DNA of 64,000 nucleotides, taken from assembly GCA_965204095.1 (NCBI GenBank), contig OZ241991.1:2376720-2440719 (forward strand). The letters run 5' to 3'. This document shows, piece after piece, positions 2 through 57,798 of the stretch (the stretch's first letter is position 1; each line of letters starts with the position of its first letter). Both the position numbers and the translations under genes were made by a program. The notes beneath the pieces were generated by a model. It did no database searches and was not told the origin of the DNA. It saw only the letters and a program-made list of their open reading frames with translations. This stretch comes from Bryobacterales bacterium (GTDB lineage: Bacteria > Acidobacteriota > Terriglobia > Bryobacterales > UBA6623).

Positions 2-862
2 CACGGAGGCCCCGTCCGGCTGAAACTGGAGACCCAGCAGCCGACCGGCTCGTTCAAGGTGCGGCCGTCGATGAACAGCATGCTGACGCACCTGGAGCAA
101 GCACGGTCGAAGGGGGTCGTGACATCGTCCTCGGGCAACTTCGCGCAGGGCGCCGCGTATGCGGCGCGGCGACTGGGAGTCGATCTTCAGGTAGTGATGA
201 TGAAGAGCGCCTCGGGATTCAAACGGCAGCGGACCGAGGAGTTGGGAGCGACAGTGGTTCCGTGCGAGAACACCTTCAAAGACCGCTGGGACACGACGTA
301 CCGGATCGCGGGTGAATCGGGGCGTCTGTTGATTCACCCGTATGATTCCGAGGAGACCATAGCGGGCGACGGAACGATCGGGCTCGAACTGCTGGAGCAG
401 GTCGAAGGGGATTTTTGCGTCGTCGTACCGATCAGCGGCGGCGGCGTGATCTCGGGCATCGCAACGGCCATCAAGGAGAAACGCCCGGGGTGCCGCGTGG
501 TGGGCGCGCAACCGTCGGCGAACGGGTCGATGGCTCGTTCGCTGGAGGCGGGCAAGCCGGTGGCGGTAACGCCCGGACCGACCTTGGCGGACGCCTTGAT
601 GATCGCGCAGCCGGGGAAACGTACGTTCGAGATCGTACGGCGGCTCGTGGACGACGTCGCCGCCGTGGACGAGAGCGAGATCAGGGGCGCGATGAAGCTG
701 CTGGCGGAGCAGCAGAAGCTCGTCGTCGAAGGCGGCGGGGCGGTGGGCACGGCGGCTCTGCTGAGCGGAAAAGTGAAGAGTGCCGGACTGCCGGTGGTGT
801 GCGTACTCAGCGGAGGGAACATTCAGCCGAGCAAGCTGGCGGAGATATTGGCGGCATCCTAG
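2..862 (+). CDS. PLP-dependent threonine/serine dehydratase family enzyme (5' end outside window)
   Basis: The frame is open from nt 2. The translation LKLETQQPTGSFKVRPS carries the PLP-lysine motif (TGSFK) of the PALP fold, followed by SSGNFAQGAAYAA and the glycine loop PISGGGVISG. Stop TAG 860-862 is the first 3 nt of a repeat element. Confidence 0.8.
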   Translation, partial: HGGPVRLKLETQQPTGSFKVRPSMNSMLTHLEQARSKGVVTSSSGNFAQGAAYAARRLGVDLQVVMMKSASGFKRQRTEELGATVVPCENTFKDRWDTTYRIAGESGRLLIHPYDSEETIAGDGTIGLELLEQVEGDFCVVVPISGGGVISGIATAIKEKRPGCRVVGAQPSANGSMARSLEAGKPVAVTPGPTLADALMIAQPGKRTFEIVRRLVDDVAAVDESEIRGAMKLLAEQQKLVVEGGGAVGTAALLSGKVKSAGLPVVCVLSGGNIQPSKLAEILAAS

Positions 863-1241
863 CCTACATTTCTCACCACCCGACGGCCGAAGCACGCAAA
901 AAAGGCCGTGTTTCGAAAAAAGGCCGTGTTTCGTGTCTCGTGATTCGTGTTTCGTGAAAACCTGTTGGTCGCGGCTTGGTGTTGCTCTAGTCGGAACTCC
1001 AGACGGGCAGGGAGCTCAAAAGCCGTGATTCGAAAAAAACCCGTGTTTCGTGTTTCGTGTCTCGTGACCCCAAAACCCTGGCAGGCGGTACGGCCGTGGC
1101 TCCAAGGCGGCTTGGATCAAAAGCCGTGATTCGTGTCTCGTGAAAAACCTTACAGGCCGTGTTGCCGGCGCCAAGCGGCGCGCCTCGACCTGACGGCCCT
1201 CTCACGCACCTCGCCACGCCACACGGATAGAAAAGCAGGCT
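860..1241 (+). mobile_element. MITE-like repeat, long variant (copy 1)
   Basis: It starts TAGCCTACATTTCTCACCACCCGACGG and ends ...CCTGACGGCCCTCTCACGCACCTCGCC...AAAAGCAGGCT. It contains three GTGWYTC heptamer blocks. It is alignable with the copies at 4624, 23262 and 28818. Confidence 0.75.
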
Positions 1242-1337
1242 CACCCGCTTCGCGTCCGGCGCGGCGCCGGCGACTTGTCAGACACCCCTGCCGGGCGCAA
1301 CAAGCTGTCCGCCTCGAAACCGAAGCACAGCCATCCG

Positions 1338-2294
1338 TCACTGAGACGGGGCAGGAAGACAGCCCCTCGCGCGAAGCGTTGCCGGCAGCAAAGCAGCATA
1401 GATTGCCGAGTGGACGGGCGCCGGCACTCCTGATTCGCGGGCAAAACGGACCACGGCGCCGGTCTGGAACTCGAACTCGGAAGGTTTGCCGGCGAGGATG
1501 TCACGATGCATGGAAGCGGTCGCATCGGCAGGGAGCCGATCGATGCGGCGGATCGCCCGTTCGGGAAGGGAGGGATCAAGCGCGACGCCCCGCTTGGAGG
1601 CGAGGGCGACGATTTCCTCCATGGCCGACAGCAGCATGCGGCGGGTTTCGGGAACGGTGCGGAGAACGCCAGCGGGCTCACGAACGACGGAGCCCACGGC
1701 GCCGAGCGGCTCGACATGCATGAGCTTCTGCCACAGGGCAACCTGAATGTCGTCCGGCACGACGGCGGCCATGCCGACGGCGGGGGTGAAGGCGGCGCGA
1801 ACCCGCTCGACTCTCGCGGTCTTCCCGCCGCTCATCTCACCGAACTCGATAGCGGGTTCAAGGCCAATGTGCGCGATGGACACGGGGCCGGTCTTCGAAG
1901 CGAAGATCTTGCAGAGCCCGCCGAGGACGACTTCCGGACCGAGCGCTTGCGAGAGCAGAGCCGGGGCCTCGAGGCCGTTCTGCATCGGGATGAGGACGGT
2001 GTCCGCTCCCACGAGCGGAGCGAGCGAGGGCGCGATTTCCCGGACCTGGTAAGCTTTGACCGCGACGAGGACGACATCGCAGGGGCCGATCTGCGCCGGG
2101 TCGCCCGCGACATTCGGATTCCGAATCTCGAAATCTCCGGCAATGCTTTGAATCCTCAGCCCCTCTGCCCGCAGGGAGGCGAGAGTCTTTCCGCGAGCGA
2201 GAAAAACGACATCGAGACCGGCCTGCGCCAGCCGTCCTCCAAAGTAGCCCCCAACGGCCCCCACTCCAACCACGACGATTCGCATGGCATCCAT
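1338..2294 (-). CDS. panE: 2-dehydropantoate 2-reductase (ketopantoate reductase, ApbA/PanE family)
   Basis: 318-aa ORF with the N-terminal Rossmann motif VVVGVGAVGGYFGGRLA. The overall sequence is PanE/ApbA-like. Confidence 0.8.
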   Translation of the reverse strand: MDAMRIVVVGVGAVGGYFGGRLAQAGLDVVFLARGKTLASLRAEGLRIQSIAGDFEIRNPNVAGDPAQIGPCDVVLVAVKAYQVREIAPSLAPLVGADTVLIPMQNGLEAPALLSQALGPEVVLGGLCKIFASKTGPVSIAHIGLEPAIEFGEMSGGKTARVERVRAAFTPAVGMAAVVPDDIQVALWQKLMHVEPLGAVGSVVREPAGVLRTVPETRRMLLSAMEEIVALASKRGVALDPSLPERAIRRIDRLPADATASMHRDILAGKPSEFEFQTGAVVRFARESGVPAPVHSAIYAALLPATLRARGCLPAPSQ

Positions 2295-2359
2295 TGTCGC
2301 GAACCGCCGCAGCCTGCGTTTCAGGCGAAGTGCGCGAGAGAGCCGACAGTACGGCCGAC

Positions 2360-3547
2360 TCAGCCCATCACCTGCGCTGATGCGAGGTCCAGGAACGGTT
2401 CCCCTTCCGCGAAGCGAGCCGCTCTCAAGGCGTGAACATCAAAGCTTTCGGCCGCGCCGTCGAGGATCATCTCGCCGAGAATCCTGCTCACCGCGGGGGC
2501 CATCTTGAAACCATGTCCGCTGAAACCGACGGCGCAGAAGAGGCCTTCGACGCCGGGCAGACGATCCAGGATGGGGTGCCAGTCCGGGGTGACGGAGTAG
2601 AGCGCGCCATAGCCTCCGCGGCCAGCCGCGCGCTGGAGGGAGGGGTTTCGACGCTGGATCTTGCGCCGCATCTCGTCGACAAATTCCCGGTCGGCGACCT
2701 CGTTGTAGGCATCCGGGTCGACTTCGGCGCGCTCTTCTCTGGGATCGATATTGCCGATGTGGAGCAGGCCGCCCGGCAACGGCCGGCAGTAGGTCTCATG
2801 GACAAAGTCACAGTAGACCGGCTGCCGCCGGGGCCGGCCGGAAGAACAGGGACCCCGCAGCATGGCGATCTGAACACGACAGGGCTTGACGGGCAGCGAG
2901 AAACCGGCCGTTTCAGCCAGAGCCGCGCTCCAGGGACCGGCGGCGAGGACGACCGTTCCAGCGGCGATCTCACCATCCGTGGCCGCAACTCCGGCGACCT
3001 TTCCGCTCTGCGTGAGGATGCGTGTCGCCCGCGAGCCCTCACGAATTTCCACGCCCTTCGAACGGGCCGCCCGGGCGTACGACGCGACGACCTGCAGGGC
3101 GTCGCAATATCCGGCCTGTTCCTCGAACGCCGCCACCTCACCGTCGGCGAGCGAGGCTTCCGGATCGATCTCCCGCAGCTCGTCTTTAGAAATCAAGTTC
3201 ACTTTCACGCCCATCCGCCGCTGCAGATCGAGCACGAACTCCAAATGCCGGCGGCGGCTCGGGGGAGCGATGATGAGGAGCCCCGCCCTTGTAAACACGG
3301 GAGGTCCGCCGAACACGTCCGTGAAGGTCTCGAAAGTACGCAGGCCGTGCAGCGCCATCGACGTGGTCAGAGGGTGGGAGTAATGGCACCGAATGTTCGC
3401 GCCCGACTTCCCGGAAGATCCTGCGCCCAGGGCTTTTTTTTCAAGGACGGCCACCGCTCCAGCGCCGCGCCGCGCCAACTCGCAGCCAATGGCGACACCC
3501 ATCACGCCGCCCCCGATCACAACAACATCGGCCGTATTCTTCATCAC
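2360..3547 (-). CDS. FAD-dependent oxidoreductase (DAO / sarcosine oxidase beta-like family)
   Basis: 395-aa ORF with the dinucleotide-binding motif VVVIGGGVMGVAIGCELARRG. Length and C-terminal region fit glycine/D-amino-acid oxidase-type flavoproteins. Confidence 0.75.
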   Translation of the reverse strand: MMKNTADVVVIGGGVMGVAIGCELARRGAGAVAVLEKKALGAGSSGKSGANIRCHYSHPLTTSMALHGLRTFETFTDVFGGPPVFTRAGLLIIAPPSRRRHLEFVLDLQRRMGVKVNLISKDELREIDPEASLADGEVAAFEEQAGYCDALQVVASYARAARSKGVEIREGSRATRILTQSGKVAGVAATDGEIAAGTVVLAAGPWSAALAETAGFSLPVKPCRVQIAMLRGPCSSGRPRRQPVYCDFVHETYCRPLPGGLLHIGNIDPREERAEVDPDAYNEVADREFVDEMRRKIQRRNPSLQRAAGRGGYGALYSVTPDWHPILDRLPGVEGLFCAVGFSGHGFKMAPAVSRILGEMILDGAAESFDVHALRAARFAEGEPFLDLASAQVMG

Positions 3548-3601
3548 TGATCCCGCTTGATCCGGCGGTACAAGAAATTAGTATGAACCAGCCGGGAGTC
3601 C

Positions 3602-4552
3602 TCAGGCGCCGTCACCGCGACCAGCCTCACCACCCTGGTCGGAGGTTACGGATGCGCGTTCAGGAAAAGAGACCCCGACCAGCTCGCGACACGCCTCCAG
3701 GGCCGAGGCGAGAAAGCCGGCGGCGCGCAGCGACTGCTCGTCCGCGCCGCCGGCGGCCACCAGATTCGGTCCCGTCAGCACGGCCCCGAGCCAGCCTTCG
3801 GCGTGCCATTGCCCTTCGCCCGCCAGGAGCGGCAAGGGCGGGTCATGCGGATACGGCCACGGAGTCACGTAGAGATAGGGCTCGCAGTAATCCTCGTCCC
3901 CCGGCGTCATGCCCACTCCGATCGAGCGGCCGGAATCGCGCCCCTGGGCCGGCTGGAACTCGATCAACGTGGCCAAGTCGAAATGGTGCGGCCAGCAGCG
4001 AACCGGGGACGCCTCGGGCGTCTCGGCCTCGATCTTGCGGCACAGGCGGTCGTTGTTCGCAAACCAACGCCGCAGTTCGGCAAAGGCTTCCGGCGCGGCG
4101 AAGGAAAACGGCTGGCCCTGGGCGACCGGATGCGCCGGGATGAGGTTGGGCGAACGGACGATCTCCTTCGAGAGCCTGCTCTCCGAGAATTGCCCGATCA
4201 CGGACTCCAACCAGGCGTAGGCCACCTCGACGGTTTGTCCGTCGAGATCGAAGGAGCTGAGGATCGTGCGGCGGTCCTCGCCGCTGACCAGAAGCAGCCG
4301 CAGCCCCGCGACGTCCAAGGCGGCATGAAAGGACGGGTCGCCAGCGGCGGGCTTGCTCGTCAGAGCGCCGAGGGAGTCGATCCATTCGAGGTTGGTGTGG
4401 CTGTCGTCCCCGGCCGGTTCAACGAAAGTAAATCCGACCGAGCTCGCGATTTGAGCAGCGTGATGAAGCTGCAGCCGCGCGTCGACGAGGCTGCCCGGTG
4501 AAGGGTCTCCGAGCTTTTCCCAATCCAAGGCGGACTCCGCCGAGATGGTCAT
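3602..4552 (-). CDS. hypothetical protein
   Basis: The ORF track gives 3602..4633, but codons upstream of Met-28 (ATG at 4552, MTISAESAL...) run into the repeat element at 4624. I recognise no domain. Confidence 0.5.
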   Translation of the reverse strand: MTISAESALDWEKLGDPSPGSLVDARLQLHHAAQIASSVGFTFVEPAGDDSHTNLEWIDSLGALTSKPAAGDPSFHAALDVAGLRLLLVSGEDRRTILSSFDLDGQTVEVAYAWLESVIGQFSESRLSKEIVRSPNLIPAHPVAQGQPFSFAAPEAFAELRRWFANNDRLCRKIEAETPEASPVRCWPHHFDLATLIEFQPAQGRDSGRSIGVGMTPGDEDYCEPYLYVTPWPYPHDPPLPLLAGEGQWHAEGWLGAVLTGPNLVAAGGADEQSLRAAGFLASALEACRELVGVSFPERASVTSDQGGEAGRGDGA

Positions 4553-4623
4553 GAACGGACAACATAACACTCTTGCCACCGGCAGGGGTTTCCCGCCATG
4601 GGGTTTCCGAGGCCCATCCGCGC

Positions 4624-4923
4624 TAGCCTGCATTTCTCACCACCCGACGGTCGAAGCACACGAGAAAAAGGCCGTGATTCGTGTTTCGTGTCTCGTGATT
4701 CGTGAAAGCCATGGGAGGGGGCTTGGTTGGCTCCAGAAGAAATGTCTGACGGCCTGTGAACGGTAAAGGCCGTGTTTCGTGACCCGAGAGGTAAAGGAAG
4801 CGATTTGTCAAGTACGCCTGCGCGCGCCAAGCGGCTCGCGCCTTTTTCCTCCGCCCGGCTTGCGCCTAGTCCTGACGGCCCTCTCACGCACTTCGCCTCG
4901 CCACGTGGTGAGACATGCAGGCC
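4624..4923 (+). mobile_element. MITE-like repeat, long variant (copy 2)
   Basis: 5' end TAGCCTGCATTTCTCACCACCCGACGG and 3' end CCACGTGGTGAGACATGCAGGCC. It has a heptamer block at 4665-4710 and the internal module CCATGGGAGGGGGCTTGGTTGGCTCCAGAAGAAATGTCTGACGG, which is shared with 23305 and 29345. Confidence 0.8.
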
Positions 4924-5099
4924 AGGGCCGGAAAACATTGCGGCTCGGACGGGGCTCGACTATGCTGATGCTTGCCGCAGCGGCCCGCTTTTTCGCTCCG
5001 GGGCGCGGACGGCCGGTGGTCTCGACGGCCGTCCTGACGAATCCGCCGCATCCATACTTTGCTTGTGGACGGCGCCACTTTTTCTCACGGGAGTAGCAC

Positions 5100-6931: not shown

Positions 6932-7344
6932 ATGCCGCAAGGCCCGGGCCCGGACATAGCATTGTTAGCCGACCAGGGGAAGACCGGAGAACGTAGATAA
7001 ACCGGACCATCACATCGAAGCTCCCGCGGGCGCTGCGTGCATGCTGTTTGGAGATCCTGACTGCGTCGTTGGCTCTCTCGACCAACGGCGGCGAAACCTA
7101 TCTGGGTTAATTCTCCGGCGTTCCCGACAGCGACGACTTCAATGGCGTCAGCGTGCTGCTTAGCGGCGCCGTGGTGCTGGAAACCACCACTCCCGATTCC
7201 GATGGTCGATTCGCGTTCTACGGTCTGGCCGATGGCGGCCACATCGTTCAGGTTCGCAAACCGGGGTACAAATCATCGCCTGCCCGGCCGTTCCGAGTAG
7301 AGATGGGAGGGCAGGTCTCGTCGACAAGCGCCGGGCCGCGCCAA
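6932..7344 (+). pseudogene. Degenerate tandem duplicate of the 5' end of the 7521..10217 gene
   Basis: About 410 bp aligns base-for-base with 7455-7856 (offset 523 bp). The start codon context GGAGATGAACCGGACC has become GTAGATAAACCGGACC. An in-frame TAA appears where the intact copy reads CTGGGCCAAGTC (CTGGGTTAATTC). Residual ORF 7153..7482 keeps the TTTPDSDGRFAFYGLADG...VRKPGYKSS segment. Confidence 0.75.
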
Positions 7345-7520
7345 AGGACAGTCGCAGGTTTTTCTGCACGTATTCACAAAAGAGTCACGATTTATGAGGC
7401 TCAGATCACGGCAAGTTCATTCACGTCTGGTAGATTTCAAGTTCAGGCTCGCCCATGCCGCAAGGCCCGACGACCGGGCTGAGCCTTGTTTGCCGACCGG
7501 CGAAAGACCAGAAGGCGGAG

Positions 7521-10217
7521 ATGAACCGGACCATCGCAACGAAGCTCCCGCCGGTGCTGCGCGCCTGCTGTTTCGGGTTCCTGATTGCGGCGTTGGCTCT
7601 CTCGGCCAACGACGGCGGAACCTATCTGGGCCAAGTCTCCGGCGTTCCCGAGAGCGATGACTTCGATGACGTCAGCGTGCTGCTTAGCGGCATCGCAGTG
7701 CTGAAAACCACCACTCCCGACGGCGATGGCCGATTCGGGTTCTACGGTCTGGCCGACGGCGACTATGTCGTTCAGGTTCGCAAACCGGGGTACAAATCAT
7801 CGCCCGCCCGGCCGTTCCGCGTGGAGATGGGAGGACAGGTCTCGTCGACAAGCGCCGAGAACGAGTTCGTTCTCGAGCAACTGGACTCGAACACGTTCGT
7901 ATTCCATTGGGAGGAGGACCAAAGCACCGCAGGATACGACTATTCGTCCCACGTCAACGAGCCGATCGAAGTCGAGTTCGTCGACGAAGAGACTCCGGCC
8001 CCTGACGGCTCTTCGGCCAACCGGCTTCTCCACGACTACAACATCTCGCTCGTCAATGAAGGCAGCGAAACCTGGACGCACGAGCATGCCTACCGACTTC
8101 TGCAGACGATGGAGACCATTCCCCAGCGGAAGCGGGATCCGTACCGCGAGCAGTCTCTGCCTGCCAGCCGCTGGCACATTGCCTCCGAGCATGTGGAAAA
8201 CGACATTCGGATCGAAGGCGGAGACAGCGACGGACCCACAACGGTCCGGATCGCGGCCGATGCTTTCGTTCATGCTACCCCCAGGATCGCGCGCATCGAG
8301 GGCAAGCGGGGGGCTTACTACTCGCAGCGCCTGCACCATGCTCTCGTGCGGTTCGTCACGGACAATGGCCGGGATGAGGAGGCCTACGAGAAGATCCTCC
8401 AGGAACGGTTCGGCGTGACGACGCGCATCACCGAGAACACCACCTACGAGACCTTGACGGCCAACACGACGAACGAGCCGGCGTCGCGCTTCCAGGCATT
8501 CCATGCCGAAGAGATCGTACAGATCATCAACACCTTCGAGGAGATGCCGGAGGGAATGCATGCGATCGCCGGACTCAAGTACCTGGCAAGACGCCTGGAC
8601 GGAACCCCGCACCCTCTGTATCCCGAGGCTCCCGCCGTCGCCTGGACCGGATCCGGCTACATCGAGTTCATGGAGAAGGGTTTCAACACGTCCTCCATTC
8701 TCTACGTCCACCGGCTGATCATTCACGAGAAGGCGCATTTCCTCTGGGCACACCTGTTCGACGAGCAGTTGAAGCAGGACTGGATCCTGCTGGGAGGCTG
8801 GTACCGCGACGCCAACGACCCGGACGGCTGGTCCACGACCAAGCAGACGGAATTCGTCAGCGCCTACGCCCACGGAAAGAACCCCAATGAGGACATGGCC
8901 GAGTCGGTCGCCTACTTCGTCGTCAACCCGGACAAACTGCGGTCCCGCTCTCCTGGAAAGTATGAGTTCATTCGTGACCGCATCATGCAGGGCAACATCT
9001 ACATTTCGAGGATTCGCGAGGACTTGACGTTCGAGGTGTACAACCTGTACCCGGACTACGTGTACCCCGGCAAGATCCGCCGCGTGGACATCGAGGTGAC
9101 CGGCGGGCCGGAAGAGGACAAGAATGTCAGCGTCGAGATTGAACTGCACGCGCTGGACGTGGGGTTGGAAGGCGCCGTTTACGCGATCACCAGAATCTTC
9201 AGCGAAATCGGCACGTTCAAGGACCTGTACCTCTATCCGGTCGGCTTACCAAGAGGTACGCCAGGCACGGTGCTGTCGGGGAGTTTCAAGCTCGGCAAAT
9301 ACGCCAAGGCGGGCTACTGGAGTCCGGATCAGATCAGACTTTCCGACGCGCACGGCAACGAACGGTTCGAGGGGACTCAGGACTTCGGTTGGCGCCTCTA
9401 CATCAACAACCCGCTGGAAGATGTCACTCCTCCTCGCTATGTGAGGAACTCGGCGTCACTCACAAAATCCAGCGGAACCTTGGAAGGTAGGGAAGTCCAG
9501 TTTATCGAGGTGACATGGGAAGTGGACGAGAACTCGGCGATGAGAGAGAATTGGGCTTGCTACGCATCCCTGAACGACGAGAATGCAGACACGTATCGGT
9601 TCGAAGAGTACGGCCACTACGATCCCGATCAGAGCATCTGCAAGGTAACGTTCGTAATGCCTCACTACATGCCCTCATCGGTGTACACCATGAACTATAT
9701 CAAGATGAGGGACCGGGCCTTGAATACGGCCGGAGTCTATTTCGGGGACCCTGGCCACAGCCTCCGGCAAGAACAATCCATCATCGATGAAACGGCGCAA
9801 CAAATCGAACTGATCACCAACAATGAGGACCTCGAGCCGCCGGAACTGGACCTCAACAACATCAGCATTCAGGCGCAGCCCACCCGGCCCGAGGATCCGA
9901 ACGGCGAGACCTTGGTTACTCTCAACTATCGCGTTCGCGATAACATTTCCGGAGTCACGATTGGATATATCCTCTTGCGAGACCCACAAGGCATTGAACA
10001 CTTCTTTTACATGGCCCCGAAAGATGGATATTTTCATGGATCGACATGGTTTCCATCCGGGGACCCATCACAGTGGTCTGACGAGACCTGGACCGTGCTC
10101 CTGCCTGCGGGGTCCGCGCCAGGGATCTGGGGAGTCGCGGAGATAGCGGTACAGGACCGAGCGAATAACGTCAAGCGTTACAACTTCACCGAAATCGTAC
10201 ACTTCGACGTCGAATAG
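7521..10217 (+). CDS. Large secreted protein with a carboxypeptidase-regulatory-like N-terminal domain and a zincin (HExxH) metallopeptidase-like core
   Basis: The start is taken at ATG 7521 (GAAGGCGGAG just upstream, then signal-like MNRTIATKLPPVLRACCFGFLIAALALSA). It has a TTTPDGDGRFGFYGLADGDYVVQVRKPGYKS beta-sandwich motif, HEKAH at 8724-8738 and NPNEDMAESVAYF at 8880-8918. GC falls to about 50% in the 3' third. Confidence 0.7.
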   Translation: MNRTIATKLPPVLRACCFGFLIAALALSANDGGTYLGQVSGVPESDDFDDVSVLLSGIAVLKTTTPDGDGRFGFYGLADGDYVVQVRKPGYKSSPARPFRVEMGGQVSSTSAENEFVLEQLDSNTFVFHWEEDQSTAGYDYSSHVNEPIEVEFVDEETPAPDGSSANRLLHDYNISLVNEGSETWTHEHAYRLLQTMETIPQRKRDPYREQSLPASRWHIASEHVENDIRIEGGDSDGPTTVRIAADAFVHATPRIARIEGKRGAYYSQRLHHALVRFVTDNGRDEEAYEKILQERFGVTTRITENTTYETLTANTTNEPASRFQAFHAEEIVQIINTFEEMPEGMHAIAGLKYLARRLDGTPHPLYPEAPAVAWTGSGYIEFMEKGFNTSSILYVHRLIIHEKAHFLWAHLFDEQLKQDWILLGGWYRDANDPDGWSTTKQTEFVSAYAHGKNPNEDMAESVAYFVVNPDKLRSRSPGKYEFIRDRIMQGNIYISRIREDLTFEVYNLYPDYVYPGKIRRVDIEVTGGPEEDKNVSVEIELHALDVGLEGAVYAITRIFSEIGTFKDLYLYPVGLPRGTPGTVLSGSFKLGKYAKAGYWSPDQIRLSDAHGNERFEGTQDFGWRLYINNPLEDVTPPRYVRNSASLTKSSGTLEGREVQFIEVTWEVDENSAMRENWACYASLNDENADTYRFEEYGHYDPDQSICKVTFVMPHYMPSSVYTMNYIKMRDRALNTAGVYFGDPGHSLRQEQSIIDETAQQIELITNNEDLEPPELDLNNISIQAQPTRPEDPNGETLVTLNYRVRDNISGVTIGYILLRDPQGIEHFFYMAPKDGYFHGSTWFPSGDPSQWSDETWTVLLPAGSAPGIWGVAEIAVQDRANNVKRYNFTEIVHFDVE

Positions 10218-14610: not shown

Positions 14611-15528
14611 TTGCAACGCGCCGTTCAGGTCCTGAAGTATCTCGTTCCGGTGGTCATCGCGTTCTTCATCGGAAGGGTCATCTATCAGAACTGGCAGGAG
14701 GTGCGGAATGCGGCCTGGAGTTTCCGTCCGCTCGAGCTTACGGCTTCTTTCCTGCTGACCGGCTGGTGGTTCGTCCTGCGGCCCCGCGTGTGGGGATTCG
14801 TCCTGGACCACTTCGGACACAAGCTCACTTTCCATCAGGCGTTCCAAGTCGTGCGAAAAGCGGAGTTGAGCCGCTACGTGCCCGGCACGATCTGGCAGTA
14901 CGTCAGCCGCATCTACCTGGCCGGCCTCTACGGCGTGCCCACCCATGCGACCATCGCCACCACGCTGGTGGAAACGGTCATTCTGTTTCTGGCGTCGCTG
15001 ATTCCCGCCCTGTGGTTTCTGTCGGAAACGCTGCCGTCGCTGAACCGCTATCACCTGATCATGTTGTGGATCATCCCGATCGCGGCCTTCGTTGCGATCC
15101 ACCCCGGGGTTCTGAACTTCTGGGCGAAACGCCTCTCGCGGCGGCTCAAGCAGGAGTACGAACCGCTGAAGATCCGCTGGCTGACTATGGCGGGCATCTG
15201 GGCGTTCCTGCTGCTGAGCTGGCTGATCTTCGGGACCGCGGCGGCGCTGTTCGTCCGCGGAGTACTCGCGACGCCGTGGGGAATGATTCCGCAGCTCGCG
15301 AGCGACTACGCGCTTTCCTGGGTGGTGGGCATGATCTCGATGATCGCGCCCGCCGGGATGGGCATTCGCGACGGCATGTTCGGCCTGCTCGCGGGACAGC
15401 GCATCGGCATCGGCACCGCCATGACCGTCGCCGTCGGCCTGCGGCTGTGGCTGACGCTGACCGAGCTGGCCTGGACCTTCGGCGGCCTGTGGTTTTTGGG
15501 GCGGCGGGATAAAGGCCGTGTTTCGTGA
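14611..15528 (+). CDS. Flippase-like / lysylphosphatidylglycerol-synthase TM-region family membrane protein (UPF0104)
   Basis: 305-aa polytopic ORF with a TTG start, immediately after the GT2 gene (a common pairing). The last about 6 codons (DKGRVS) and the TGA stop lie inside repeat copy 3. Confidence 0.6.
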   Translation: MQRAVQVLKYLVPVVIAFFIGRVIYQNWQEVRNAAWSFRPLELTASFLLTGWWFVLRPRVWGFVLDHFGHKLTFHQAFQVVRKAELSRYVPGTIWQYVSRIYLAGLYGVPTHATIATTLVETVILFLASLIPALWFLSETLPSLNRYHLIMLWIIPIAAFVAIHPGVLNFWAKRLSRRLKQEYEPLKIRWLTMAGIWAFLLLSWLIFGTAAALFVRGVLATPWGMIPQLASDYALSWVVGMISMIAPAGMGIRDGMFGLLAGQRIGIGTAMTVAVGLRLWLTLTELAWTFGGLWFLGRRDKGRVS

Positions 15529-15702
15529 TTCGTGACCCAAAAACCCGGGATGCGATGCGGTCGTGGCTCCAGGGCGGCGTGGGAAAAGGCCATGATTCGT
15601 GAAAAACCTTAAAGGCCGTGTCGCTGGCGCCAAGCGGCTCACGCCTCGTCCTGGCGGCCCTCTCACCCACTTCGCCTCGCCACGCGGTGAGACATGCAGG
15701 CT
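15511..15702 (+). mobile_element. MITE-like repeat, 3' partial (copy 3)
   Basis: It lacks the 5' TIR. It has heptamer blocks plus the conserved 3' arm ...GCGCCAAGCGGCTCACGCCTCGTCCTGGCGGCCCTCTCACCCACTTCGCCTCGCCACGCGGTGAGACATGCAGGCT. Confidence 0.7.
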
Positions 15703-15752
15703 CATGCTCCCATCTCAAGCGAGTGCGCTTGCGGGTCGGCAGTGCAGAAGTC

Positions 15753-18779: not shown

Positions 18780-18970
18780 GGCCGTGGTTCGTGTCTCGTG
18801 TTCCGTGATCCGAAAACCGAGGCAGGCGAAAAAAGGCCGTGATTCGTGTCTCGTGTCTCGTGATTCGTGAAAAACCTTACAGGCCGTGTTGCTGGCGCCA
18901 AGCCGCTCGCGCCTCGTCCTGACAGCCCTCTCACACACTTCGCCTCGCGACGTGATGGGAAATGCAGGCT
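18780..18970 (+). mobile_element. MITE-like repeat, 3' partial (copy 4)
   Basis: Two heptamer blocks (18785-18818 and 18831-18876) and the conserved 3' arm ending GGGAAATGCAGGCT. Confidence 0.7.
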
Positions 18971-19290
18971 CACCATGGCCTTACTGTAGCCAGGATATTG
19001 TCCTTGTCAACGACGTCGATGGGGAAAAGCCGTGTCTCGTGAAGAGAGCAGGACGCGCTCCGACGAGCGTGCATGGCGACGCCACACCCGTTGAGCCGGC
19101 AGTAAAGCGGCGGAGGTCATGACCGTTTCGATGCCCCTTTTCCGACCGTGTTCGACCGCTAGAAGAAGGGATCGGACGGGGCTCGGTTTTACGGATCACC
19201 TGCCCTGTGCAGCCTCACTTGGAGGCCGAATTCAGCGCCGTGCAGCGTGCTAGAGTGATGAGTCACCTCAGCCTTCACTTGCGCCTCGCC

Positions 19291-23010: not shown

Positions 23011-23046
23011 CCGGACTCAGCCTGTCCGGTCCAGCTCCTCAAGCTC

Positions 23047-23229
23047 TAGCCTGCATTTCTCACCACCCGACGGTCGAAGCACACGATACGACCGCCAGGA
23101 CTTCGTTGCGCTGGCTTGCCGTGCTCAACGTACTGTTCAAGTACGCCTGCGCGCGCCAAGCAGCTCGCGCCTAGTCCTGGCTGCCCTCTCACGCACTTCG
23201 CCTCGCCGCGTGGTGAGAAACGCAGGCTA
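23047..23229 (+). mobile_element. MITE-like repeat, short (~183 bp) variant (copy 5)
   Basis: TAGCCTGCATTTCTCACCACCCGACGG ... CCGCGTGGTGAGAAACGCAGGCTA. It is collinear with 36053, 43949 and 52815. Confidence 0.85.
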
Positions 23230-23261
23230 CCGACCGGCATGGCTTGGAGAACCAAATCATT

Positions 23262-23514
23262 AAGGCCGTGTTTCGTGTTTCGTGTCTCGTGTCTCGTGAA
23301 AACCATTGGCAGGGGCCTGGTTCGCTCCAGGAAGAAATCTCTGACGGCCGGTGAGCCGTAAAGGTCATATTTCGTGCCACCTGTTTCGTAACCCGAGGGC
23401 CAAAGGAGGCAATATGGAATATGGCCGCCACACCTGCGCGCCAAGCAGCTCGCGCCTCCTCCTGACGGCCTTCTCACGCACTTCGCCTCGCCACGTGGCG
23501 AGAAAAGCAGGCTA
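23262..23514 (+). mobile_element. MITE-like repeat, long variant lacking the 5' TIR (copy 6)
   Basis: A heptamer block is followed by the CCATTGGCAGGGGCCTGGTTCGCTCCAGGAAGAAATCTCTGACGG module. The 3' arm ends GGCGAGAAAAGCAGGCTA. It lies 32 bp after copy 5. Confidence 0.75.
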
Positions 23515-23666
23515 CCCTGTCCCGACCATCTTCTCATGCGACGCGCCTTGAAGTGTTCGAGGTAGCATACGCGACGTAGAAAATGGTCTTACGAATGTTG
23601 CGGCAGGATAAGGAAGAGGCGGCGGGTGCGTGAAGAGTTGTCGGGTTCCAGATCCCGGATACGCAG

Positions 23667-28764: not shown

Positions 28765-28817
28765 ACCGGAGTCCGGAACCCTCCTGCCGAATACCCTGTT
28801 CTTCCGAGCCCGGGCTC

Positions 28818-29536
28818 TAACCTGCATTTCTCACCACCCGACGGCGGCCGCACGCGAAAAAAGCCGTGATTCGTGTTTCGTGAAAAACCTTACAGGCGGT
28901 GTTGCCGGTGCGGGGGACGGTCGCCGCCCATGCCGCGCCATAGCCGCCCCATGCCGCGCCACGCCGAGGGCAAGTCGATCCGGGTGATTGCCGACATCCT
29001 GTCATCATGCTAGGCCGGCCGGGGCGAAAAAAAAAGACTGAAGGGCTTCAGTACCAACAGGTACCGTTCAAGCCACGTGATTCGTGAAAAACATAAAGGC
29101 CGTGACTCGTGTCTCGTGATTTGTGTTTCGTAAAGACCTTAAAATCAGTGGCTTATGGCTGGTGAACGCCTGGGGAACCCTGATTCGCGACCCGCACGGA
29201 CTGCGCCTCGCCGCCTCCGTATGCTCATGCCTAGCAGGCCGGGGCAGAAAAAACAAGACTGAAGGGCTTCAGTACCAACAGGTATCAAACGTGCCACGGG
29301 AATGGCCGTGATTCGTGTCTCGTGTCTCGTGTTTCGTGAAAACCATTGGTGAGGCTTGGTTCGCTCCAGAAGAAATGTCTGACGGCCTGTGAACCGTAAA
29401 TGCTGTGTTGCGTGTCTTGTAACCCGAGCCTGCAGGAGGCGATACGGCCGCTACACCTGCGCCAAGCGGCGCGCGCATCGTCCTGACGGTCCTCTCACAC
29501 ACTTCGCCTCGCCACGTGGGTGAGAAAAGCAGGCTA
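28818..29536 (+). mobile_element. Composite/nested MITE-like repeat (copy 7) with an internal duplication of about 222 bp
   Basis: The 5' TIR TAACCTGCATTTCTCACCACCCGACGG and the 3' arm ...CCACGTGGGTGAGAAAAGCAGGCTA bracket four heptamer blocks. They also bracket two copies of GGCCGGGGC-A(6-9)-GACTGAAGGGCTTCAGTACCAACAGGTA (about 29011 and 29236). Confidence 0.7.
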
Positions 29537-29730
29537 ACCGTAACGCGCAGCTCGCCCGGAAGCCTTCCTCACTGACGAGCACTTATCTTGGCGCCATGGC
29601 GAGCAGACAATACGCAACCCGTCCCAACAGGATGAAAGGTCAGCAGACACCGAAGAAGCGGGTCCCGAGACAGGGACGATATACCGACGAAGCGCCGATG
29701 ATACAATGAGAGCCGCTCAGGACAGGAAAA

Positions 29731-35395: not shown

Positions 35396-35403
35396 AACTC
35401 CCC

Positions 35404-35929: not shown

Positions 35930-36052
35930 CGGATTCGCGCCCAAGGCAGGGAACTGCCCCAACCATACCAGCCCGGAGGCAAAACGCCCATCGCCGTAAA
36001 AAACTCGCGCCTCAGAGCCCGCAGGAGGCGTTTTCAGCGAGGAGGTGGACCC
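35930..36052 (-). repeat. E2 repeat copy f, proximal half (interrupted by the MITE at 36053)
   Basis: The minus strand reads GGGTCCACCTCCTCGCTGAAAACGCCTCCTGCGGGCTCTGAGGCGCGAGTTTTTTACGG...GGTATGGTTGGGGCAGTTCCCTG. Confidence 0.6.
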
Positions 36053-36235
36053 TAGCCTGCATTTCTCACCACCCGACGGCCGAAGCACGCGATATGACCG
36101 CCAGGACTTCGTTGCGCTTGCTTGCCGTGCTCAACGTACGGTTCAAGTACGTCTGCGCGCGCCAAGCGGCTCACGCCTTGTCCTGACGGCCCTCTCACGC
36201 ACTTCGTCTCGCCACGTGGTGAGAAATGCAGGCTA
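36053..36235 (+). mobile_element. MITE-like repeat, short variant (copy 8), inserted inside an E2 repeat
   Basis: TAGCCTGCATTTCTCACCACCCGACGG...CCACGTGGTGAGAAATGCAGGCTA. The flanks GGACCC|TA...TA|GCCACCTGGGATTTACGCC match the uninterrupted paralogous site GGACCCTAAACCTGGGTTTACGCC at 32848-32871. Confidence 0.85.
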
Positions 36236-36303
36236 GCCACCTGGGATTTACGCCAGGGAAACGCTTTGAAGGGTCTTTCTCAGGGCTCAACGTCGGGACC
36301 CTG
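36236..36303 (-). repeat. E2 repeat copy f, distal half
   Basis: CCACCTGGGATTTACGCCAGGGAAACGCTTTGAAGGGTC... parallels AACCTGGGTTTACGCCTTGAGAAACGCCATTGACGGGTC at 32857-32895. Confidence 0.55.
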
Positions 36304-36735: not shown

Positions 36736-36869
36736 CGGGACCCGGAGCCGACATCCCTGGCCGCTGGGCGGTTCTTCGCTCGGCACGGGCGCTGATGCGC
36801 CCGCCGGTGCGTCTACCCGCCCTCTCCTGCGTCGCTTTGCATAGGGTTAAAGGGTAAAAGCGCAAAGGG

Positions 36870-37562
36870 TTATTCCGTCCTCAGCAGGCGGAAGCCGAGA
36901 ATGGTGCCGTGGAGGCCGGGCGAGACGCTGAAGCGAATCGGCGCCCGGCAGCCCCTGGCGCTGCCGCCCCAGCCGCCGCCACGATACACCCGCTTCGAGC
37001 CTGACCCCGGTCCCTGAGGATCTGTCACAGACCCTCCCGTGTAGTCGCCTTGCCAGTCATCGACCCACTTCCACACGTTCCCCAGCATGTCGTAGAGCCC
37101 CCAGGCGTTCGGTGCCTTCCGCCCCACCGGATGCATGCGATCCCCGCTGTTGCCGTCGTACCATGCGACCACGTCCACATTCCCGTAGCGGTCTCCGCTC
37201 GTCCCCGCCCGCGCCGCGTACTCCCACTCCGCCTCTGTCGGCAAGCGGTAGCGATCTCCTCCGGACTGCCCGTTCAGCCTCCGGATAAACTCCTGCGCGT
37301 CATCCCAGGAGACTCTCTCCACCGGGCAATCGGGACCGCACTCGTCGAACCAAGATGGATTGGCCCCCATCACCGCCTGCCACTCCGCCTGCGTCACCTC
37401 GTACTTCCCCAGCCAATACCCCCGGCTGATCCGCACCCGCGTCAGCGGCTGCTCGTTATCAAGGGATTCAAGACGGAGAACCGGATTTGACTTCAGAAAC
37501 CCGCCGACACCACCCTGCCACATGCCGGAGGGCGCGCGATGCTTCCGATCCAGCATTCTCAT
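36870..37562 (-). CDS. Formylglycine-generating enzyme (FGE/SUMF1) family protein
   Basis: YWLGKYEVTQAEWQAVMG...RLPTEAEWEYAARAG...GLYDMLGNVWKWV...RGGGW motifs. No signal peptide. Confidence 0.8.
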   Translation of the reverse strand: MRMLDRKHRAPSGMWQGGVGGFLKSNPVLRLESLDNEQPLTRVRISRGYWLGKYEVTQAEWQAVMGANPSWFDECGPDCPVERVSWDDAQEFIRRLNGQSGGDRYRLPTEAEWEYAARAGTSGDRYGNVDVVAWYDGNSGDRMHPVGRKAPNAWGLYDMLGNVWKWVDDWQGDYTGGSVTDPQGPGSGSKRVYRGGGWGGSARGCRAPIRFSVSPGLHGTILGFRLLRTE

Positions 37563-37627
37563 AAGGACTCGAACTTCGGGAAGCTGGAATTTGCTGAGCT
37601 TGCGGAAGTGGATGTTGAAGGATACGG

Positions 37628-40006: not shown

Positions 40007-40016
40007 TGGGATCTTC

Positions 40017-41366
40017 CTATCCCGCCAGCGTCGAACCATACGACTCGGCCGCCTCCTGGAACCCGTCCAGCGGGGCGCCCATGGTTTCTGCGATCGACAA
40101 AAAGAGCCGAGACATCGAGCCGCCCTGGAAATCGATAGCCCGCCCGGTCTTGATCCTGCCGCCGCCACCGCCAGCCAGAAGCAATGGATACTGGGTGCAA
40201 GTATGGCGGTTTCCGTCCCACATATCGGATCCGATCATGACCATCGAATTGTCCAGCAGGGTACGATCCGCTTCCTGCACTTCGTCCATCTTCTGCAGCA
40301 AATAAGCATATTGAGAGATATGCCAGCGGTTGATGAGATGGTATTGGTGCAGCGAAATCGGAGTCTCCTTATGGTGGCTCAATGCATGCCACTGACCGGT
40401 GACGCCGGGCAGGAAGCTGAAGTCCATGTATTTGGGGCCGTAGCTGTCAAACATGAACGTCAGCACGCGGGTCTTATCCATTCGCAAGGCCAGCACGATC
40501 AAATCAAGCATCAATCGGGTGTGTTCGCGGAAGTTCTCCGGCTGATAGAGAGCAAAATCCGGTGTCTCGCCGGCACCGCTCGGGTCATCAGCGTGAAAAC
40601 GCCTGGAGATGGCAGAGGGAGCCGCCTGTTGACGTTGCCAAGCGTTCTTTTCCCGCTCCAGGCGCTCGATCCGCAACTCCAATTCGCGAATGCCCTCGAA
40701 GTATTCGGCCAATGTCTGGCTGTCTTGCGCACTGATGCGTTTTTCAAGATCCTTGGCCTGACCAAGCACAAAGTCGAGCACGCTCTTGTCCCGCTTCAAC
40801 CAGGACTTGTCGGAGAACAAGGCCGCGAACGTCATGGCGGGATCGATCTCCTTGGAAAGAGGCTTGTCAGGACCTCTCCAAGAGATGCTGGAATCGTAGA
40901 AGGCACGGCCGTTTCTTGAGGGAGCAATGCCCATCACGAGCGAACGAAACTCGGTTTGGCCACCGATCCGAGCGGCGATCTGCTGATCGAAAGAAATGCC
41001 TGATCGGTTATGGTCCCGCCCTCCTGGTTCGCCAGTTAGAAACGCGGCGACCTTGCCGGCATGTCCGCGAACTTTGCTCAGATGCAGATGGGACACGTCC
41101 TGAAGGACATTGACCTTGTGCTTGATCTCTTCCAGCGGCTCAAGCGTAGGCCCAAGCTTCAGATCTTCGCCCGAACCGGAGGCTCCCCATTGATGCGTAT
41201 TGACACCAAGCGGAAAGAAAGTCGTCACAAAGCGAATCGGGGCCTGAGCAGCCGCCTGCTTTGCCGGAGCCGCAGTGAGCGTCGAGACGGATTCCAGCCA
41301 CGGCAGAGTGAGGCTCACTCCCGCAGCTTTCAGGAACGACCGGCGATTCGCTTGATGGTGTCTCAT
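40017..41366 (-). CDS. DUF1501 domain-containing protein (sulfatase/alkaline-phosphatase superfamily, Tat signal)
   Basis: MRHHQANRRSFLKAAGVSLTLPWLES Tat-type leader, with DUF1501-like sequence throughout. It ends 10 nt before the next gene. Confidence 0.8.
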   Translation of the reverse strand: MRHHQANRRSFLKAAGVSLTLPWLESVSTLTAAPAKQAAAQAPIRFVTTFFPLGVNTHQWGASGSGEDLKLGPTLEPLEEIKHKVNVLQDVSHLHLSKVRGHAGKVAAFLTGEPGGRDHNRSGISFDQQIAARIGGQTEFRSLVMGIAPSRNGRAFYDSSISWRGPDKPLSKEIDPAMTFAALFSDKSWLKRDKSVLDFVLGQAKDLEKRISAQDSQTLAEYFEGIRELELRIERLEREKNAWQRQQAAPSAISRRFHADDPSGAGETPDFALYQPENFREHTRLMLDLIVLALRMDKTRVLTFMFDSYGPKYMDFSFLPGVTGQWHALSHHKETPISLHQYHLINRWHISQYAYLLQKMDEVQEADRTLLDNSMVMIGSDMWDGNRHTCTQYPLLLAGGGGGRIKTGRAIDFQGGSMSRLFLSIAETMGAPLDGFQEAAESYGSTLAG

Positions 41367-43881: not shown

Positions 43882-43948
43882 CACAGCCAATCGCCAACTC
43901 TTCCATGGCCTCGCCCTCATCTCTCGAGTCGGCGACCCATTCACACAC

Positions 43949-44131
43949 TAGCCTGCATTTCTCACCACCCGACGGCCGAAGCACACCATACGGCCGCCAT
44001 GACTTCGTTGCGCTTGCTTGCCGTGCTCAACGTACTGTTCAAGTACGCCTGCGCGCGCCAAGCGGCGCGCGCCTCGTCCTGACGGCCCTCTCACGCACTT
44101 CGCCTCGCCACGTGGTGAGAAATGCAGGCTA
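43949..44131 (+). mobile_element. MITE-like repeat, short variant (copy 9)
   Basis: Both TIRs are complete (TAGCCTGCATTTCTCACCAC / GTGGTGAGAAATGCAGGCTA). It lies between a TPR gene and the argR stop. Confidence 0.85.
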
Positions 44132-44199
44132 GGACTCCTGTGAGCCACATTGATCAACCCAAGCAGGATTGTTCCTGCCTTTCGTATTGAGGAGGGGAT

Positions 44200-52556: not shown

Positions 52557-52814
52557 TGTGCCATACGGGATCAGTACCGACGCGTGTTCCGAACCGGGAG
52601 TGCGGTGCGCTGTAATGACTTACCGTTTCTCCATGCAGGACGACCTTTCGTTGCTGGAGTATTGGGAAGTCGGCGATGAAATGGCTCAAGACGAATGCCT
52701 GGAAACTCGAGACGCGCGGCTCGGATTGACGTGCCGATTGGCCAAACAAGGGGAATTGTTTTCCAGAGATGGCCGCGACTCTGTGATCCATTGCACCACG
52801 ATGGCCATGGACCT

Positions 52815-52996
52815 TAACCTGTATTTCTCACCACCCGACGGTCGAAGCACGCGATACGACCGCCATGACTTCGTTGCGCTTGCTTGCCGTGCTCGATGTA
52901 CTGTCAAGTACACCTGCGCGCGCCAAGCGGCGCGCGCCTCGTCCTGACGGCCCTCTCACGCACTTCACCTCGCAGCGTGGTGAGAAATACAGGTTA
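52815..52996 (+). mobile_element. MITE-like repeat, short variant (copy 10, diverged termini)
   Basis: TAACCTGTATTTCTCACCACCCGACGG...CAGCGTGGTGAGAAATACAGGTTA. Substitutions in the two TIRs are compensatory (C>T paired with G>A). Confidence 0.85.
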
Positions 52997-53020
52997 GCTC
53001 CGACCGAGGATTCATCCACC

Positions 53021-56875: not shown

Positions 56876-56921
56876 AAGGGCGGACGGCGTCCGGAATGGC
56901 TATGGGCTGCGTCGCTCCGCG

Positions 56922-57509
56922 CTACGCGGCTTTCGCTCGCTGGTGCAAGGTGTCGAGGGTCAGGCCGGAGGCGGCTCGGATGGAGAAGCCATAGCGGCGC
57001 TGCGGATCGTTGTCTCGCTTCATGTCGCAACCTCCCTCCCCAAAAAGCTTATTCAAGGCGGCTTCGATGGCGGGTCGAAGCATTCCATCCGTCACGTCGT
57101 TATTCGGAAACTGAAGCCGGTCGTTGATGCAGAACTCCCATGCTTCCGGCCTGAGTTGCAGTTCGGCGGGATAGGCCGGTTCCGCAACCAAGGCCTTCGC
57201 CAAATCCAGGCAGCGCCGGAATGCCTCGACGATCCGTTCGTCATTCGATCCGCCGAAGTCCTTCTTCCCGGCGTAGAGCACCCCGAGCCCAGGACGGTTT
57301 AGGTCGATCGCGAAGTTGCCTTGATGGCCGGCCAGAAGGATTCCCGGGCCTCGCGCCATGTGCGCATAGTCGGCGAGGTCGACCCACTGCGCAGGATGAT
57401 TCTTGTCCTGCCGCCATCGGCCGAAGATTACCAGGAATGGGTCCAATCGGAAGCCGCGCGGCGCTTGGGCAAGCATCTTTACATGGATACGTTGAAGGTC
57501 GGCGCTCAT
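56922..57509 (-). CDS. hypothetical protein
   Basis: The start is placed at ATG 57509 (MSADLQRIHVK...). I recognise no domain. Confidence 0.45.
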   Translation of the reverse strand: MSADLQRIHVKMLAQAPRGFRLDPFLVIFGRWRQDKNHPAQWVDLADYAHMARGPGILLAGHQGNFAIDLNRPGLGVLYAGKKDFGGSNDERIVEAFRRCLDLAKALVAEPAYPAELQLRPEAWEFCINDRLQFPNNDVTDGMLRPAIEAALNKLFGEGGCDMKRDNDPQRRYGFSIRAASGLTLDTLHQRAKAA

Positions 57510-57616
57510 CTTGAAAAAGCTTATCGGATTCCTTTCTGTGTGAAAATCGAGCCGGCGACACCGCATCGGTATCGATCAAGTGACCGACGGCTTGAGCCTC
57601 CATGTTGGCGGAAAGC

Positions 57617-57798
57617 TGACCTGCATTTCTCACCGCGTGGCGAGACGAAGTGGGTGAGAGGACCGTCAGGACGAGGCGCGAGCTGCTTGGCGTTCACAGG
57701 TGTACTTGAAAGTACATCAAGCACGGCAAGCAACTGCAAGGAAGTCATGGCGGTCTTACCGCGCGCTTCGGACGGCAGCCGGTGAGAAAAGCAGGTCA
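57617..57798 (-). mobile_element. MITE-like repeat, short variant, inverted orientation (copy 11)
   Basis: TGACCTGCATTTCTCACCGCGTGGCGAG...CCGGTGAGAAAAGCAGGTCA. It is the reverse complement of the other short copies. Its last 3 nt are the TGA stop of the sulfite reductase gene. Confidence 0.85.

Follow-up and report, generated by a model that had tools for sequence, protein, structure and literature searches.

Very abundant miniature transposable elements in a sponge-associated Bryobacterales bacterium, most probably mobilised by an IS1380-family transposase

We examined a 64-kb stretch of chromosome from a Bryobacterales bacterium (contig OZ241991.1, positions 2,376,720 to 2,440,719; the whole stretch is called the window below), in which a short intergenic repeat occurs 11 times. 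The repeats belong to a genuine and very abundant family of MITEs (miniature inverted-repeat transposable elements) of an uncultured, sponge-associated Bryobacterales bacterium, which, judging from its ends and target sites, is most probably mobilised by a transposase of the IS1380 family of insertion sequences (ISs). The initial annotation of the window had already read the repeats as MITE-like, and this reading held, with conserved termini in hundreds of further copies, a target-site duplication, and orthologous sites found both empty and filled. The family goes beyond the ordinary in its density, in its link to bacterial relatives of piggyBac, in the parallel families found in other phyla, and in the adoption of the MITE centre by an IS110-family element. 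In the literature examined, we found no MITE tied to IS1380.

When a 63-copy consensus, together with the heptad module described below, was used in a BLAST search against the window, exactly the 11 intervals annotated initially were recovered and no others. Together they add up to 2,950 nt, or 4.6% of the window, as had been estimated. The 20-mer TAGCCTGCATTTCTCACCAC had 17 matches (with at most 3 mismatches) in the 64-kb window, versus 0.02 expected from shuffles. Direct-repeat detection and alignment bore out the uniform short form with five copies (182 to 183 nt at 23047, 36053, 43949, and 52815, and a diverged inverted copy at 57617) and the modular long or partial forms (860, 4624, 15511, 18780, 23262, and 28818). 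The first four short copies were 94 to 97% identical to the consensus and the inverted copy 87%, and mean pairwise identity among 63 short copies was 92%. Copy size was 182 to 382 nt for 10 of the 11 and 719 nt for the other, MITEs being as a rule under about 600 bp. All copies were intergenic on our own open reading frame (ORF) map, a simple one drawn from codon-position GC, as the initial annotation had held, and convergent, tandem, and divergent spaces were all occupied. Stop codons were touched by copy 1 (860-862) and copy 11 (57796-57798). The ORFs that run through the copies are read-through artefacts and have no transposase match. A transposase had been reported as lacking from the window, and we found none there either: tblastn with five transposases gave noise only, and scans against Pfam and NCBIfam gave no match.

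The family is not restricted to the window, since copies occur in other genomes and in metagenomes. When the exact 20-mer was scanned across 185,579 species genomes, at least 96 further 8-kb stretches (∼700 kb) were recovered. Among the matches listed, these were mostly from metagenome-assembled genomes (MAGs) of Bryobacterales (Acidobacteriota), above all the 5.97-Mb chromosome OZ242366.1, and several bins had names that suggest sponge or coral samples. The 700 kb of listed related loci contained at least 327 end matches, and consecutive plus and minus end pairs (among the matches listed) were 183 nt apart in 45 cases, 182 nt in 16, and 207 nt in 8. The sequencing runs that contain the window were sponge, reef, and biofilm metagenomes. 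In four sponge metagenomes, MITE depth was roughly 2,000 to 4,000 times that of the single-copy genes alongside; per genome this is a maximum, as relatives in the community may contribute to it. The short form had no match in PLSDB plasmids, the 20-mer had none in IMG/VR, and the end sequence as a text string had none in the literature searched.

A complete copy has a non-coding body of about 175 nt with arms that are imperfect mirror images of each other. The initial annotation gave the copies a perfect terminal inverted repeat (TIR) of 20 bp. A terminal repeat is indeed present, but the first bases of the 20-mer, (C)TAG, belong to the duplicated target; the true TIR is 17 nt long, CCTGCATTTCTCACCAC, and the element proper starts with CC. 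This TIR was perfect in copies 8 and 9 and had at most 3 mismatches in the other copies. The terminal repeat had been described as extending imperfectly to about 40 bp; palindromy in fact spans the whole short form, which is ∼70% identical to its own reverse complement. On folding, the short form, represented by copy 8, formed one long hairpin, as did the consensus (DNA z = -6.2; RNA z = -8.5 for the plus strand and -11.8 for the minus strand). In the long forms, the first ∼42 nt and the last 79 nt are kept, with one to several modules of the heptad NTTCGTG between them, and the same switch point was visible in metagenomes as loose contig ends at element position 42. Copies 3, 4, and 6 have the right end only (modules plus right arm), and such copies have lost their left end.

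The TIRs of copy 10 had been described as carrying compensatory changes that maintain the pairing of the ends. The matched change itself (CCTGTA at both ends) is real, but it is an exception: in 125 element pairs, 127 TIR changes were found at one end only and 13 were identical at both ends. Matched changes were above chance (13 observed versus ∼1 to 3 expected); descent from variant source copies explains them more simply than maintained pairing, for which they argue little.

Outside CCTGCA...TGCAGG, the adjoining four bases have the behaviour of a directly duplicated 4-bp target site with the consensus YTAR, mostly CTAG. Because CTAG is self-complementary, it could be either part of the inverted repeat or a duplicated target, and it is the non-palindromic flanks that decide. 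These were direct repeats in 16 pairs (CTAA/CTAA in 7, TTAG/TTAG in 6, and others) versus inverted in 4, and the flanks of copy 7 in the window are likewise direct (CTAA...CTAA). Therefore, the element begins with CC, its TIR is the 17-mer, and a 4-bp YTAR is duplicated. A reading of the TAG, TAA, and TGA termini as stop codons was dropped, as the variants are explained by YTAR targets plus transitions.

Empty and filled sites were compared at two pairs of orthologous loci from different related Bryobacterales MAGs. At one, the empty site was ccatCTAGccatt (L036), and the orthologous filled site was ccatCTAG[CCTGCA..TGCAGG]CTAGccatt (L029); at the second, the filled and empty pattern was reversed. 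Since the empty sites have one CTAG and the filled sites have CTAG-element-CTAG, the element has transposed. In addition, metagenome contigs frequently carried head-to-tail arrays with one common CTAG (joints going back 184), in keeping with an element that makes its preferred target anew on either side of itself. At the window's own copies the contigs break, and insertion polymorphism could not be demonstrated there. The transposase would bind the 17-bp ends, cut the element out, insert it at a YTAR site, and duplicate the four bases; each insertion would make new CTAG sites at its own borders, and copies would tend to land side by side. We infer these details of the cut-and-paste chemistry.

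The initial annotation had proposed a search of the genome for an IS with a matching TIR. We searched the related loci for pairs of weaker end matches with identical flanks and found such an element of 1,724 bp (L001, positions 356 to 2079; ends CCCGCATTTCTCACCAG and CCCGGATATCTCACCAG; CTAG on both sides) on a sponge-MAG contig, where it adjoins a typical MITE copy through one shared CTAG. Its 487-amino-acid ORF matched the NCBIfam IS1380 model NF033539 with 388 bits (cut-off, 180) and the Pfam domain DDE_Tnp_1_4 (PF13701) with 491 bits, and its two ends were like the MITE TIR at 15 and 13 of the 17 positions. A metagenome scan with this protein gave 80 relatives (56 to 65% amino acid identity) from environmental metagenomes. 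Both ends were found 1.64 to 1.76 kb apart in 61 of the 80, and one further relative was mis-paired at 1,876 bp. The ends of these relatives have the consensus CCCG[C/G]ATTTCTCAC, in which positions 1, 2, and 9 to 13 are nearly invariant, and their flanks are almost always YTAR. The end motif CCCGSATTTCTCAC and the YTAR flanks are common to the metagenomic relatives and to annotated plasmid copies in two cultured Proteobacteria, Pseudomonas and Sinorhizobium, namely a 1,655-bp IS1380 copy on Pseudomonas putida pKF715A (CTAG on both sides, beginning CCCGCATTTCTCACAG) and a 1,644-bp copy on Sinorhizobium fredii pNGR234b (TTAG on both sides).

In the runs that contain the window, DNA ∼90% identical to the IS1380 element of L001 was present at ∼5 to 40 times single-copy depth, and by metagenome depth the MITE was ∼100 times more numerous than IS1380. 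Foreign-element insertions aside, no transposase lay between any end pair in the related loci. IS1380 ends start with CC and are flanked by direct repeats of 4 to 5 bp; piggyBac duplicates TTAA, and its ends begin with CCC. The family member IS1247 has 1,672 bp, short inverted repeats, and a 5-bp duplication (PMC3281130), and IS1380 transposases have been used as the prokaryotic outgroup of piggyBac (PMC10813416).

From the ends and flanks, we think it quite likely that this is a MITE family with a 17-nt TIR and a YTAR duplication, moved in trans by an IS1380-family DDE transposase, although we infer the identity of the enzyme from sequence. Several observations weigh against it. Similarity between the MITE and every IS1380 element sampled ends after ∼19 to 22 terminal bases, duplicated target included; the MITEs therefore share ends with IS1380 and are not simple internal-deletion derivatives of it. 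Of the 17 positions of the MITE end, 2 and 4 are different in the two ends of the sole IS1380 copy seen beside a MITE. Further, IS1380 is absent from the window, only metagenome-level data place it in the window's own genome, and full-length IS copies with identical flanks made up only 25 of 53, though nearly all flanks were YTAR.

Nor are the copies fragments of a larger element, the other outcome that the initial annotation had considered. Larger units bounded by the ends were examined for a transposase: those of 1,614 to 1,624 bp are MITEs entered by an unrelated IS110-family element, a 1,431-bp unit (L046) holds a second IS110-type element, and a 1,368-bp unit (L010) is a non-coding module expansion. 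A 3.1-kb insertion in a related MAG (L087) was also rejected as the partner, being an IS630 element nested in IS1595, both with unrelated ends. This insertion (L087 positions 1196 to 4346, as compared with the orthologous contig L048) contains an IS630-family element with C-TA-G flanks and ends GTGTTCCGTCCCAGAAATA, along with an IS1595-family transposase gene; as a whole it is bounded by IS1595-type ends and an 8-bp duplication, AAAAGTTA.

We weighed three other possible drivers against IS1380. IS630 favours CTAG and duplicates TA, and CTAG is the commonest flank here; with an IS630/Tc1-mariner-type transposase acting at CTAG, only TA would be duplicated and G...C would be the outermost bases of the element. 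We consider this very improbable, even with an IS630-family element present in a related MAG (L087), because outer and inner flank bases co-vary as direct repeats (the seven CTAA/CTAA and six TTAG/TTAG pairs), which a TA-only duplication does not predict. Moreover, the ends of the L087 element (TAGTGTTCCGTCCCAGAAATA) are unrelated, and it is IS1380 elements that carry the actual end motif. A partner from the IS5 group or the IS701 family would agree with the length of the duplication, given that a 4-bp YTAR duplication has been described for IS5 (PMC5009759) and a conserved 4-bp duplication is described for IS701 (PMC2266710). However, the published end consensus of IS701 (---YACT-Y--YR; PMC2266710) does not fit, and no element of either kind with ends matching CCTGCATTTCTCAC was seen, as opposed to 62 IS1380 elements that have the end motif and the flanks; we give such a partner very little chance. 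Whole-length palindromes with strong predicted hairpins (z of -6 to -12), great abundance, intergenic location, and use as IS110-family landing sites are traits that the copies have in common with repetitive extragenic palindromic sequences (REPs), and they might accordingly be doublets like REPINs, copied by a REP-associated tyrosine (Y1/HUH) transposase via single-stranded hairpins. This is extremely improbable. The target-site duplication is clear and empty sites keep one target copy, which is the mark of DDE transposition and not of HUH single-strand transposition; the 17-mer itself forms no hairpin, and neither the window nor the 700 kb of related loci that were inspected showed a Y1 transposase.

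Mobility by an IS1380-family transposase could be joined by a host role, with copies kept because one strand serves as structured RNA, for example as an RNase III site or a hairpin at mRNA ends, or because the DNA has a regulatory role. We examined strand asymmetry in 63 to 74 short copies (window plus loci L003 to L095). RNA of the minus strand folds better (-120 versus -94 kcal/mol; consensus, -123 versus -96) because it has more G.U pairs, and single transitions at Watson-Crick pairs that give a minus-strand wobble (103 cells, 41 distinct) outnumbered those that give a plus-strand wobble (32 cells, 22 distinct). In tandem-gene contexts the minus strand was the transcribed one in 23 of 35 copies, and metatranscriptome contigs covered copies at high depth. 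Against this, copies lie in both orientations and in all kinds of intergenic space, the 23:12 orientation bias relative to the flanking genes is not significant, and the RNA pile-up is expected equally from collapsed multi-copy contigs or DNA carry-over. The wobble asymmetry was equal in all four arrangements of flanking genes and is therefore intrinsic to the element. Paired and unpaired positions changed at the same rate (0.045 versus 0.048), and no Rfam family reached its gathering score in the copies, tRNA-Lys being the only one in the window. Thus, we regard a retained RNA or regulatory role as quite improbable.

It is also unlikely, in our judgement, that the family is more than a passive parasite in a wider sense, with one strand protected and the element acting via a single-stranded form (RNA, or a strand-specific step of IS1380). 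The hint of protection is that changes which keep a wobble are three times as frequent on that strand, irrespective of the genes nearby. Together with the IS110 element, it would then be a nested system of three layers that makes up several percent of a symbiont genome: IS1380 would move the MITE, and the MITE would host the IS110 element as an RNA-guided landing site.

The 11 copies in the window are as follows, with flanks included in the coordinates of complete ends.

Copy 1, 859..1243, plus strand: long form; CTAG at 859-862 and the left TIR at 863-879 (CCTACATTTCTCACCAC) precede the left arm, three modules of the NTTCGTG heptad, and the right arm; the right TIR at 1223-1239 is degenerate and is followed by CTCA.
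Copy 2, 4623..4925, plus strand: long form with CTAG at 4623-4626 and the left TIR at 4627-4643; a single heptad module and some of the short-form core come next, then the right TIR at 4905-4921 (one mismatch) with CCAG as its flank.
Copy 3, 15511..15704, plus strand: right half only, without left TIR; heptad modules and right arm, right TIR 15684-15700, flank CTCA.
Copy 4, 18780..18972, plus strand: right half only; heptad modules and right arm, right TIR 18952-18968, flank CTCA.
Copy 5, 23046..23230, plus strand: short form with a body of 175 nt, TIRs at 23050-23066 and 23210-23226, and CTAG and CTAC as flanks.
Copy 6, 23262..23515, plus strand: right half only, 32 nt past copy 5; heptad module and right arm, right TIR 23495-23511, flank CTAC.
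Copy 7, 28817..29537, plus strand: longest form, with a body of 713 nt, TIRs at 28821-28837 and 29517-29533, and a direct duplication that is not palindromic, CTAA...CTAA (28817-28820 and 29534-29537).
Copy 8, 36052..36236, plus strand: short form with perfect TIRs at 36056-36072 and 36216-36232 and a CTAG at either end.
Copy 9, 43948..44132, plus strand: short form with perfect TIRs at 43952-43968 and 44112-44128 and a CTAG at either end.
Copy 10, 52814..52997, plus strand: short form; flanks TTAA and TTAG, the same variant CCTGTATTTCTCACCAC in both TIRs (52818-52834 and 52977-52993).
Copy 11, 57616..57799, minus strand: short form in opposite orientation; 87% identity to the consensus, flanks CTGA and TCAG.

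The TAG in the CTAG that flanks copy 1 is the stop codon of ORF 59-862, and the right flank of copy 11 overlaps the stop codon of a NirA-like gene (57796-59928, minus strand). Copy 5 retains an intact form of the central motif that an IS110 element targets elsewhere. The interior of copy 7 contains a 71-nt duplication and several heptad modules. Metagenome contigs diverge from the window at copy 9, at 43948 and at 44131-44133. One DNA run (X2) had a contig across copy 10 that is without the internal 137 bases 52828-52964 and has the two ends only; this could be a real mini-form, like the 40- to 72-nt end-to-end hairpins of L005, L072, L088, and Verrucomicrobiota, or an assembly shortcut. In copies 1, 3, and 4, where the right arm follows heptad modules, the right flank is CTCA (1240-1243, 15701-15704, and 18969-18972) and not YTAR. 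This flank was rare in the related loci (2 of 22), and the three copies may form a local sub-lineage or have inserted by another route.

In the related MAG OZ242366.1, outside the window, the MITE centre is itself the target of another element, which has entered it at exactly that point at least nine times. A 1,441-bp element lies between MITE consensus positions 93 and 94, that is, between GTTCAA and GTACGCC, and we saw six full and at least four partial copies of it, all in OZ242366.1:

Full copies: L062 153-1595, L015, L072, L076, and L083 (twice).
Partial copies: L040, L043, L063, and L073.

The junctions were identical in the six full copies. The protein matched NF033542, the IS110 family of RNA-guided transposases, with 335 bits, and the element ends have subterminal inverted repeats (TGGTTCGCTCCC and GGGAGCGAACCA). 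Copies of the IS110-family element were ∼99.5% identical to each other, versus 94 to 97% for the MITE halves around them; therefore, these were independent site-specific insertions and not a spreading composite. By this comparison, the MITE copies do not derive from the IS110 element inside some of them. The non-coding end 3' of the transposase gene has two 9-mers 24 nt apart (L062 286-294 and 310-318), equal to the right target half and to the reverse complement of the left target half, which is what the loop of a guide RNA would need. An Rfam search of an IS110-bearing copy at E values of up to 0.1 gave nothing. The second IS110-type element, in L046, sits in a long MITE form. Targeting of REPs by IS621 and ISPpu9 is documented (PMC11208160, PMC12288879).

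The 20-mer was also found (among the matches listed) in Planctomycetota, Singulisphaera, Thermoanaerobaculia, several Verrucomicrobiota MAGs, and one sea-cave contig binned as Gammaproteobacteria. On these contigs, CTAG followed by CC(C/T)G(C/G)ATTTCTCACCAC ends bounds palindromic elements of 160 to 190 nt or a 72-nt mini-hairpin, with unrelated interiors. The same 20-mer recurs in several phyla because the ends are the end motif of an IS1380 clade, and independent MITE families, each making use of one widespread IS1380 clade's conserved end plus its favoured target, would account for the elements. Conservation across phyla as a sign of cellular function was ruled out once the motif proved to be the IS1380-clade end. 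Separately, three short contigs (L001, L048, and L052), which had been assigned to bins of Gammaproteobacteria (COS2), Dehalococcoidia, and Rhodothermales, have a MITE interior of the Bryobacterales type, and L048 is 97% identical to OZ242366.1. These contigs are probably mis-binned and show the repeat confusing binning.

The window is otherwise ordinary chromosome with argS, argH, an ilvD-type dehydratase gene, a Ser/Thr kinase gene, and the NirA-like gene. After a tRNA-Lys (CTT) at 29791-29866 comes a region of lower G+C content that contains an ORF with a NucS_C domain (31237-32298, minus strand), an ORF with an ORF6N domain (33137-33652), internal repeats (32459-32780 versus 36299-36619, and 35865-35976), and a 47-nt repeat at 30548, 32798, 35992, and 36647. 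This region (29791-37600) may be a small genomic island; no integrase was seen in it. A direct repeat of 300 nt (6950-7249 and 7474-7773), its units 524 nt apart and 83% identical, takes in the start of a 920-amino-acid ORF (7455-10217) and the DNA upstream of it; the ORF has only a weak, sub-threshold CarboxypepD_reg match (29.4 bits; cut-off, 32.3). At 37628-40168 (minus strand) is an 846-amino-acid protein whose domains, PSCyt1/PSD2-5, are the set that typifies cytochrome-containing proteins of the Planctomycetes type, and an FGE-sulfatase-domain protein (36870-37562) adjoins it.

With about 4.6% of the sequence taken up, and copy-equivalents that run to thousands in sponge metagenomes, this is among the denser MITE loads of bacteria. 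It is important to note that the repeat will break short-read assemblies at every copy, with contigs that end at element borders, and will seed spurious ORF calls in MAGs of sponge-associated Acidobacteriota. The IS1380 link gives the family a testable partner that is a bacterial relative of piggyBac, and it would explain why the same 20-mer occurs on unrelated palindromic mini-elements in Acidobacteriota, Planctomycetota, Verrucomicrobiota, and a Gammaproteobacteria-binned contig. As the IS110-family insertions show, REPs are not the only safe landing sites open to RNA-guided recombinases; a MITE can be adopted as well.

Among known systems, the window family matches IS1380 elements (ISEcp1, IS1247, ISPme1, and, as the closest, the unnamed copies on pKF715A and pNGR234b) in its end motif, CC(C/T)G(C/G)ATTTCTCAC, and in its YTAR flanks of 4 bp. 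Unlike those elements, its members are 183 nt long (up to 719 nt), have no transposase, and are palindromic over their whole length, with only the ends in common. They resemble piggyBac and its MITEs in duplicating a 4-bp target centred on TA (TTAA being a form of YTAR) and in ends that begin with CC, but piggyBac is eukaryotic and has seamless excision as its hallmark, whereas the window family is bacterial. Correia/NEMIS elements of Neisseria, ERIC (MITEEc1), and RUP of Streptococcus are similar in size class, TIRs, target duplication, intergenic location, hairpin-forming transcripts, and length variants made by internal modules. In those families, however, TA is duplicated and the partner is of the IS630 type or not known, in contrast to the YTAR duplication and IS1380-type ends described here; MITEEc1 has been assigned to IS630 (PMC11602168). 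Finally, REPs and REPINs with IS621, ISPpu9, and ISPpu10 are likewise abundant intergenic palindromes in which an IS110-family element sits at a fixed position of the repeat (PMC12288879, PMC11208160). REPs are 20 to 40 bp long, have no target duplication, and are tied to Y1 transposases (RAYTs), whereas in the window family the landing pad is a DDE-type MITE.

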